Below, in pieces: positions 2,497 through 34,544 of a stretch of 64,000 nucleotides of DNA. Origin of the DNA: Octopus vulgaris (taxonomy: Eukaryota); assembly GCA_951406725.2 (NCBI GenBank), contig OX597821.1, positions 3,844,001-3,908,000 of the forward strand, given 5' to 3'. Below the pieces are notes generated by a model that made no database searches, was not told the origin of the DNA, and saw only the letters and a list, made by a program, of their open reading frames with translations. Each line of letters opens with the position of its first letter. The first letter of the stretch is position 1. A program made the translations under genes and the position numbers.

Positions 2497-2544
<48 letters not shown>

Positions 2545-2681
2545 GGAGTAAACACATAAATGTGAAACAAGGTGGAAAAAAAAGTACTCAAATACCAGTG
2601 TTAGAGTAATATGCTTTATTTAAAGCAGCAGAAAATTCAACAAAATCTGTTACTCTGAGTTTCTCGTTGCCGTTCATCAGA

Positions 2682-2719
2682 CTGTCTGATGAACGGCAAC
2701 GAGAAACTCAGAGTAACAG
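2682..2719 (+). ncRNA. Minimal type-I hammerhead ribozyme motif (mirror copy on the minus strand at 2647-2684)
   Basis: ctgt-CTGATGA-acg gcaa cga-GAAA-ctc a gag-TA-acag: stem I 4 bp, GNRA-capped stem II with an A-A mismatch at its base, tiny stem III, GUA cleavage triplet. Confidence 0.75.
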
Positions 2720-2751
2720 ATTTTGTTGAATTTTCTGCTGCTTTAAATAAA

Positions 2752-2786
<35 letters not shown>

Positions 2787-2924
2787 TAAATAAATGGCAC
2801 AACGAAGTACCGATATTTACTGGAAAATAGCGAACGTAATAAATACGACACTAATGTATAGCTTCACTGCTTATGTACTAGCAAAAATGCGGGTGTGCAA
2901 CAAACTTGACAAAAATTGTCTTAC

Positions 2925-2939
2925 CTCCAGGGAGAACAT
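2925..2939 (-). CDS. Candidate 15-nt phase-1 microexon, (D)VLPG(G/E/D/V/A)
   Basis: Minus strand reads tatttcatctttcag|ATGTTCTCCCTGGAG|gtaaga: near-consensus acceptor and donor, length divisible by 3, and open in frame after the 23581 donor. Confidence 0.45.
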
Positions 2940-3186
2940 CTGAAAGATGAAATACCTAGAAAGGGATAATGTGGTACCGGTTTCAGATTTTTCAAGATAT
3001 GTCTGCCCACATATACTTGATTTATCTTCATCAGCCAACATATACCTCGACAACATTTCAAATGTTGCCACATTCATGCCAATACACTCGACTGAACGCC
3101 AAAACGTTGACAGAACGAGAACAGTGAAGAAGTTTCAATAATACCATTGGTCCAGGAGTTAGATGGTAAATATTTTTATATCTTTC

Positions 3187-3269
<83 letters not shown>

Positions 3270-3273
<4 letters not shown>

Positions 3274-3628
3274 CGTATTTTTGCCATTTCAATATGGCTA
3301 ACCCTTAAGGGTGGATGCTACTGTAGTTTTTAGCCCCAGGAGGACACACTCCTCCAGCTGGCCATAGACACACTTTCTGTGTCTATGACCTCTCGTCAGC
3401 GTGTGACAATCATAGTTGTCGCCGAGAATTAGATTTCCTTCACAAATACTTATACTTTTTCCAGCGTCCACTGTCGCTGATATTGAAAAAGTGAAATCAA
3501 ACAATGATAAATATCAGAGTTAGTTATATACAGTAGCGGCAACACATCGTGACGTATTTTTGCCATTTCAATATGGCTAACCCTTAAGGGTGGATGCTAC
3601 TGTAGTTTTTAGCCCCAGGAGGACACAC
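3270..3628. repeat. Element with identical 80-bp direct repeats next to (TA)n
   Basis: 3270-3349 is identical to 3549-3628. Confidence 0.93.
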
Positions 3629-20874: not shown

Positions 20875-21370
20875 TGAGGTCTGATCAATAATTATCCGGT
20901 CTGTCACCATAGTAAAGAAATTTAAAGCATACATATTGAAGCTCCTTGACACAAATTGACCTTAAACTCTGCTGTGCATGCACCCAACGTTTCCGCGTTC
21001 TAGCTCACTTCCGCTGTTTACAGCAGTACTTGGAAGAATCGTATATAGCGTGATCATCGCATTCACCAAGACACAGAAAGTTGTCATGGCAATATATTCT
21101 CTGAGGGCTAAACAAAGTTTCATAAATCGTATGGAGCGGAGTGTATGAGCAGCGTACAAGTGTACGAGTGTTCCGGATGTTAACATGATGGCCGAAAAAT
21201 GTTCAAGTTGATGAACGTACTGGGAGACACACAAACCACAGAACTGACGTAAACATCACAGGTATGCGTGCAGCTGTGAGGGGAAAACGTGAAATCACTA
21301 TCCCTAAGTTATCAGAATATGTGCAGATTAGTTCCGGTTCAGTTCAGTCCATTATCACTGAAGATTCTAG
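20875..21370 (+). mobile_element. Mariner 5' fragment (TIR plus degraded HTH region)
   Basis: TIR-like tgaggtctgatcaataattatccgg. Remnants YGAECMSSVQVYE and RAAVRGKREITIPKLSEYVQISSGSVQSIITED match mariner HTH motifs. Confidence 0.75.
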
Positions 21371-21371
21371 C

Positions 21372-22382
21372 GATGAAATCAGAATTGATGCCAAAAGACA
21401 TAGAAACTTTGACAAAAGTTCAACACAACAACACACCTTCTCCGAAAATACTACCTTACATATCCACATACAACCCCAGAAACAAAGAAGCCTTCACCAT
21501 CATCACCCAGAATTTACCAATACTTCATAAGGACCCCAAATTAAAGGAAATTCTAAACATACATAAAAACATTAAAAGCTACAAACAACCTAAATCACTT
21601 AAAAAGATTCTCACAAGGGCAAAATTGCTTTCTAAAATTACGGATGCAAAAGTAAAAAAATGTGGTAGATCAAACTGTGCAACATGTCCAAACCTTCTAG
21701 AAGGATCAGAATTCCCCTTCAAAGAGGAACAAAAATTCAAGATCAAATCTAATTTTACTTGTGCCTCTGAAAACATAATTTATGTCATAAGATGCTCGGG
21801 ATGCCACCAAAGCTACGTGGGGTTCACGGGACTATCACTCAGACGCAGATGCACACTGCATCGACAACAGAATGATACCCTTTAGTGAGCATATTGAGAA
21901 ATGCGCAAAACAACTACTATCACAATTTTTAATCTTTCCATCTTACCAATGTGCTATTGGAACACCAACACAAATTAGACTAAACAAGGAAACATTCTTC
22001 ATTGAAAAATATAAGCCCAAACTTAGCCACTCTAACATTCTTATACAGAGAAACTCACCCCATTAAAAACAAAACAAGAAATATAACGCGATTATCTCCC
22101 TTACACCGGAAGAAATCACCTATTACCTCTCCTTACCTGGAACTCTTCTTTACACTTCTTAACGAAATCATAACGATGTTTTGATAAATTTGAAAAGTTA
22201 AACAAGAAACCGGTAATTTCTTCAAAAACTGTCACTGTATGAAAAAAAAGTTATAACATTCTTCTGACATAATGACTCAAATATATATTTTTTAACCTTT
22301 TAAAACAAGCCTCCTGTAGTTTTTTCACTTTTTACTATCTTCTATATATTCAACCACGTGTTTTGACACACCAACTTTCTCA

Positions 22383-34326: not shown

Positions 34327-34497
34327 ATATATATTTCACATAAATGTGAAACAAGGTGGAAAAAAAGAGTATATATATATATACTTTATGTCAATAACGT
34401 AATGTCAATAACGCTATTGACATAAAGCATATTACTCTACTACTGGTATTTGAGTACTCTTTTTTTCCACCTTGTTTCACATTTATGTGTTTACTCC

Positions 34498-34544
<47 letters not shown>

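Follow-up and report, generated by a model that had tools for sequence, protein, structure and literature searches.

Mirror-Image Penelope-Type Stubs with Hammerhead Motifs in TA Repeats of the Octopus vulgaris Genome

A perfect palindrome with a hammerhead core on each strand is found in a stretch of 64,000 nucleotides from Octopus vulgaris (contig OX597821.1, positions 3,844,001 to 3,908,000 of the forward strand), referred to here as the window and used for all coordinates below. The locus raises the questions of what the palindrome is, how it was formed, and whether it acts on a candidate microexon nearby, as was proposed in an initial annotation. The segment at 2614–2682 is the exact reverse complement of 2684–2752, with 69 bp in each arm and T2683 at the center, and the cores start at 2686 on the plus strand and at 2680 on the minus strand, which confirms the palindrome and the paired hammerheads of that annotation. 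No second perfect, non-microsatellite palindrome (arms of at least 14 bp, loop of at most 10) is present in the 64-kb window. The palindrome had also been described as bounded by (TA)n. This holds for the right arm, which abuts the run at 2753–2783; the left arm is separated from the run at 2498–2542 by a further 71 nt (2613 to 2543). The whole unit is an asymmetric insertion of 210 bp (2543–2752) with (TA)n, identified from the sequence as the target microsatellite, on either side. With (TA)n on both flanks a target-site duplication is unreadable, and the same difficulty is noted in the available text of PMC8557442.

The palindrome is the overlapping part of two truncated Penelope-type ends that lie head to head in a TA repeat. 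Positions within these ends are numbered from the first C of the hammerhead core (C3) as +1. The long arm (2543–2682, minus strand) is a 5′-truncated pLTR that begins 2 nt ahead of the core and includes the whole tail, and it is 95–99% identical to 39 other full-length matches. Its tail (2543–2613, minus strand) is found on this arm only and measures 71 nt here and 72 nt in copy L031; such tails are described in the available parts of PMC3846280, PMC8557442, and PMC11167929. The short arm (2681–2752, plus strand) is a 5′-truncated pLTR without a tail that extends from 5 nt before the core to a fixed internal end at +67. This end is matched exactly 3644 times on (TA)3 across the genome and recurs on kilobase-long arms in copies L031 and L034. 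When compared with the natural sequence upstream of the core in other copies, 5 nt are left on the plus arm and 2 nt on the minus arm, which places the arm ends at −5 and −2 with the 2 nt at 2681–2682 common to both as a microhomology overlap. The central T2683 is read from this comparison as a by-product of the joint that belongs to the plus arm only.

Sequence features identify the repeat as the ribozyme-bearing pLTR of a Penelope-like retrotransposon with RT and GIY-YIG domains. The long-arm sequence runs on into the RT open reading frame in copies L003 and L032, and a single open reading frame with RT and GIY-YIG endonuclease, starting from an ATG at +206, is attached to the repeat. Copy L032 contains two same-strand cores 3362 bp apart with the reading frame between them, as a partial tandem of pLTRs, and in this tandem unit 141 nt of the arm lie downstream of the GIY-YIG-type domain and upstream of the RT frame. 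A Pfam search of two reading-frame pieces of the element gave no match, and the identification of RT and endonuclease was therefore made by reading motifs against those described in the available text of PMC8557442. The RWK motif and a change of DKG to DKT are found in the N-terminal piece of L032. The translations of L031 and L032 contain a C-terminal endonuclease without CCHH but with CxxC and CxH around the conserved E and N. The CxCX5C linker is intact in L032, and its second cysteine is replaced by F in L031 and L033.

These features are shared with the Hydra clade (for example Hydra-2_aMil, Penelope-13_HM, and Hydra-1_oBim), for which RWK, DKT, CxCX5C, CxxC, CxH, the absence of CCHH, a C-terminal endonuclease, and a (TA)n target are given as marks in the portions of PMC8557442 considered here. 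The octopus element has both the (TA)n target and a hammerhead in the pLTR, and it is a probable member of this clade on the basis of these motifs. Its hammerhead shares with that of Hydra-2_aMil an inner helix I of 4 bp and a helix III that is palindromic (PMC8557442), and an inverted copy with a second hammerhead also occurs in Penelope-13_HM. The hammerhead of Hydra-1_oBim is different, and the octopus core sequence has no match in the available supplement text of PMC8557442. The octopus unit of 3362 bp is longer than the usual length of less than 3 kb in the clade, a tendency that is not diagnostic in PMC8557442 as far as its available text goes, and helix II of only 2 bp with a GCAA loop is a further difference. 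The Naiad clade was rejected because the endonuclease is C-terminal.

The locus is an ordinary stub, one of hundreds in the genome. A search of the 2.8-Gb genome with the long arm gave 480 candidates, and all 40 of those scored were full-length matches at 95–100% identity. Among 30 family copies that were fetched, the arm mostly stops at one base on (TA)n, tail ends adjoin (TA)n in most, and many have an inverted partner that stops at the fixed internal base. In copies L031 and L034, with arms of 1.2–2.8 kb, a tail arm is paired with an inverted arm that stops at this fixed base. Exact-pattern searches of the whole genome, for which the reversed-pattern controls gave zero, returned 3935 tail-bearing arms and 649 loci at which two cores lie back to back within 30 nt of each other, in addition to the tail-less ends on (TA)3 counted above. 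The center of the palindrome recurs identically at 12 loci, 6 of them with perfect 69-bp arms. The palindrome is therefore neither unique nor likely to be an assembly fold-back. The 12 loci include both polarities of the joint and both sequence variants, and their flanks are unrelated. That the insertion at 2543–2752 is young is indicated by its identical arms and by its 99% identity to other copies.

Several other copies of the family deserve mention. A second stub lies in the window at 34337–34501, where a tail-only arm on (TA)n is preceded by a short fold-back filler and accompanied by an inverted tail fragment at 34337–34371. Copy L057 (G000:C1:1514300-1515100) has the center of the palindrome, but its second arm extends about 17 nt beyond the usual end and is an exception to the rule of +67. 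On the small contigs C35, C36, and C44 (G000) the palindromic joint appears several times, a pattern that hints at either the amplification of an array or the duplication of pieces of the assembly.

Both strands of the palindrome contain the conserved core and a UH cleavage site of a type I hammerhead. The plus-strand motif spans 2682–2719 with a predicted cut after 2715, and the minus-strand motif spans 2647–2682 with a predicted cut after 2651. Helix I could form 4 bp on the plus strand and 2 bp at most on the minus strand, compared with 15 bp in an untruncated copy; judged from the sequence, most of the 5′ strand of helix I is lost from both ribozymes. Helix II is flanked by A and A and lacks the G10.1–C11.1 pair described in the available text of PMC4209133; helices II of 3–7 bp are found in the Hydra motifs listed in the part of PMC8557442 File S2 that was available. 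Helix III is short and palindromic with the same layout as these File S2 entries. The core and helix III are typical of the minimal hammerheads of Penelope-like elements, for which weak cleavage and activity as dimers are described in the available parts of PMC4209133 and PMC6765202. An Rfam search gave no match in the window, and an untruncated copy gave 22 weak hits, none of them to a hammerhead family. In the sample from C1 described below, a subfamily has U4 of the core changed to C, apparently together with changes at +17 and +35.

The suggestion that a transcript would mask its own ribozyme in a hairpin is borne out by the folding predictions. For transcripts of both strands the prediction is a single hairpin of approximately −122 to −125 kcal/mol, and the predicted probability of the hammerhead helix pairs within the whole hairpin is below 1e-18. 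As read from the sequence, the antisense arm is transcribed first on both strands, which would leave the ribozyme no folding window. It is plausible that such a hairpin would be a substrate for Dicer or ADAR; in transgenic Drosophila, siRNAs were produced from Penelope copies in inverted orientation (PMC3681739).

A donor-like site was located 173 nt from the palindrome at a 15-nt AG...GT segment (2926–2940, minus strand), which is assumed to be the microexon candidate previously annotated. An influence of the palindrome on the splicing of a host microexon had been envisaged and is not supported: the segment lies in a dispersed repeat, and no host-gene exon scored above the Pfam cut-off among the nearby frames searched. 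This second repeat lies outside the palindrome (2790–3141, minus strand) and has its own hammerhead motif with the core at 3034. All 40 of its scored near-full matches, from 1852 candidates, are 95–100% identical, its contig depth is very high in four sequencing runs, and the 15-nt motif occurs in 6 of 7 fetched copies. The repeat is found between (TA)n runs, often as tandem or inverted pieces, with a long helix II and a palindromic helix III. A reading-frame piece close to its copy L104 has a CX4CxxC linker, a hint at a Neptune-type Penelope-like element. A Pfam search of 150 of the 170 filtered open reading frames of at least 62 amino acids in the window and the 20 kb to its left found no host exon, at a length at which short exons would escape, so that the locus may still be intronic; the two matches above cut-off were zf-RVT (LINE-type) and DUF6451. 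An open frame of 201 codons at 21280–21882 (plus strand) has a weak match to Sir2 (E value of 0.002, below the Pfam cut-off) and may represent an exon or part of a transposon. Directly repeated copies of about 80 nt (3270–3349 and 3549–3628) bound a short element beside the (TA)n run.

The formation of the stubs was analyzed using the first 100 tail-less ends listed on C1, a sample from one chromosome arm that is restricted to exact-pattern copies and favors well-preserved ones. An exact-pattern tail arm lies head to head within 12 kb of 55 of these ends, and the 45 without such a partner, which are explained in part by divergence, count against the double-copying explanation given below. The fixed ends of the arms are at +67 and +139, and the centers are variable. 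The 5′ ends of the 100 tail-less arms fall at or beyond −100 in 32 cases, at −99 to −26 in 7, at −25 to −19 in 1, at −18 to −12 in 28, at −11 to −5 in 7, and at −4 to +36 in 25, where ends at −195 to −198, which reflect a subfamily insertion relative to the reference, are counted as long arms. The pile at −18 to −12 is sharply bounded relative to the next 7 nt (28 versus 1, p = 1e-7). The edge of the pile at −17 falls on the base at which the 15-bp helix I of the untruncated motif begins, and this base is also the A of an initiator-like sequence. The pile is likely to mark the start of the RNA, at −17. An internal TATA-less promoter is located in the pLTR of Drosophila Penelope according to the available text of PMC2377424.

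Across 45 pairs, 35 of 2735 positions differ between the arms of one locus, compared with 3.6% between loci, and the arms agree in 140 of 141 comparisons at variable sites, where 51–64% would be expected. Of 51 pairs, 28 have a tail-less arm that extends further 5′ than its partner, 14 have a tail arm that does so, and 9 have arms of equal reach. Because the tail-less arm in those 28 pairs contains 5′ sequence that is absent from the tail arm, it is not a simple fold-back copy of the tail arm. The 56 joints comprise 31 with an overlap of 1–6 nt, 5 without overlap or filler (blunt), and 20 with filler or gaps in the alignment.

Three further ideas about the arm ends were considered, of which the first, for this family, and the last are rejected. 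A start at the ribozyme cut site (+31) is found, at +28 to +34, in only 2 of 88 tail-less arms and 1 of 56 tail arms; about 5–9 of 84 genome-wide joints fall at +30 to +32 by eye, no more than an even spread. There is accordingly no excess of insertion or arm ends at the predicted cut site in the C1 sample or the genome-wide joints, which is in line with the uncleaved RNA as template in the available text of PMC11167929. A collision of two enzymes at +82 to +87 was hinted at by 4 of 56 joints and was not upheld in 42 genome-wide matches, in which the predicted stop just 3′ of +67 is absent and the non-overlapping tail-arm starts spread over about +63 to +92, a result that counts against the double-copying explanation. 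A splice acceptor at −10 was proposed for the edge; this position is the end of 3 of 100 arms, and the sequence past it is unrelated.

It is probable that a stub arises in one insertion, in which both target strands are cut, one RNA is copied from two fixed internal starts, and the copies are joined through microhomology. The enzyme of the element would cut both DNA strands in a TA repeat, and the same RNA would be copied from the fixed sites at +67 and +139 toward its predicted 5′ end. Priming on both strands is suggested by analogy with the anole element in vitro, where both target strands are cut and extended by the purified protein, which initiates at two positions within the RNA, one on either side of the tail (PMC11167929). 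Copying would run off at or before the 5′ end of the RNA, with −17 as the putative transcription start, and the two copies would then be joined via a short matching sequence, presumably by microhomology end joining. At 2543–2752, the two copies would have lost 12 and 15 nt before they were joined. The result is most likely an inert footprint, with its ribozymes truncated and predicted to be masked. Later central deletions of a uniform palindrome could be an alternative source of the variable centers and the microhomology, and gene conversion could be an alternative source of the concordance between arms. A literature search that covered sources other than subscription journals returned no publication that describes double priming and run-off for Penelope-like elements.

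The proposed double copying differs from twin priming of L1, in which both target strands prime and an inversion is joined by microhomology. The inverted segments of L1 are not known to duplicate each other, nor is the second site known to be fixed, whereas the octopus arms mostly overlap and both sites are fixed. PAc, the Poseidon element of Anolis carolinensis, shares with the octopus family the two internal RT starts that bound the tail, the cutting and extension of both strands, an AT-rich target, and ribozyme cleavage that is dispensable (PMC11167929). Its start sites lie inside the reading frame, whereas those of the octopus family are both in the leader, upstream of the ATG, and inverted arms are left unexplained in the available text of PMC11167929. 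The EN+ insertions of Penelope-like elements described in the available parts of PMC3846280 and PMC8557442 have the same head-to-head inverted pLTRs, palindromic joint, one-arm tail, partial tandems, and hammerhead in the pLTR. The octopus stub differs from them as a miniature of 210 bp with no reading frame, with a tail of 72 nt rather than 30–40 nt, and in having no readable target duplication in (TA)n. Animal non-LTR retrozymes (bioRxiv 10.64898/2026.07.22.740005, available portion) are likewise non-coding, derived from Penelope-like elements, and hammerhead-bearing, but they form tandem arrays instead of a single inverted pair.

The same stub might also arise if the mirror arm were made by self-priming of one cDNA or antisense template as a fold-back, with the endonuclease setting the end at +67 and later central deletions varying the joint. 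Self-priming was proposed for Adineta Penelope in the available text of PMC3846280, and it accounts for concordant arms and for the commonest center, which is a palindrome without a loop and sits on 4 self-complementary nt at −14. The pairs whose tail arm extends further 5′ and those with equal arms are both predicted by a fold-back, but the larger class with 5′ sequence on the tail-less arm only is not. The non-overlapping arms at 5 of 56 joints, the reciprocal centers of both polarities, and the tail-less arms that often still stop at −13 to −17 when the partner starts 80–100 nt further on also speak against it, and self-priming, although the chief rival explanation, is considered unlikely. 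Mobility of the palindrome as a unit, as a MITE-like or retrozyme-like non-autonomous element, would agree with the identical center at 12 loci and the existence of a modal center type. It is largely refuted and retains a very low probability, given centers that vary continuously up to the kilobase scale, the mixed polarities, variants, and unrelated flanks of those 12 loci, and the asymmetric ends, without a tandem array or a uniform unit length or termini.

It is highly improbable that the palindrome is a hairpin adopted by the host to regulate a microexon through editing or dicing, even though a perfect hairpin is predicted and inverted Penelope copies are a source of siRNAs in flies (PMC3681739). 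The supposed microexon sits within a high-copy repeat, the Pfam search of 150 of 170 filtered frames in the window and the 20 kb to its left gave no host exon above cut-off, and the identical arms with 99% identity to other copies suggest a young insertion. An artefact of assembly or library fold-back is the least probable of these explanations. It is favored by the 100% identity of the arms and by the result that no contig of the public runs spans the locus; these contigs provided depth at the level of the family and listed no empty-site joint. The mirror symmetry nevertheless stops exactly at the fixed +67 end of the family, with different flanks beyond, this end is common to thousands of loci, and tail-less ends on (TA)n appear in the contigs of three other runs (X1, X2, and X4), a correspondence at the family level only. 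One insertion with double copying of one RNA is the preferred explanation.

The layout of these insertions is already in print (PMC3846280 and PMC8557442, available portions), and the single palindrome is of no importance, since the genome holds at least 649 stubs of this kind. For annotators, the stubs are a warning that hammerhead palindromes with nearby "microexons" in the octopus genome are usually repeat debris. The stub population is a large natural data set on how Penelope-like elements build inverted repeats and tails, the origin of which is named as an open question in the available text of PMC8557442 and PMC11167929. It makes the sharp and testable prediction that the RNA starts about 17 nt before the ribozyme core and that both strands are primed from one RNA. 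A bolder reading, quite possible though held tentatively, is that the thousands of stubs are a record of Penelope insertion in which a single RNA, starting with the base that opens helix I, serves twice as template, once from each of two fixed sites in the leader, and is copied onto both cut strands. If this is true, RNA from the element's own promoter could give rise to nothing more than tiny mirror-image stubs, read-through from a neighbor in tandem would be required for full-length copies, and each event would leave behind a perfect hairpin directed against ribozyme and leader, a silencing trigger of the element's own making.
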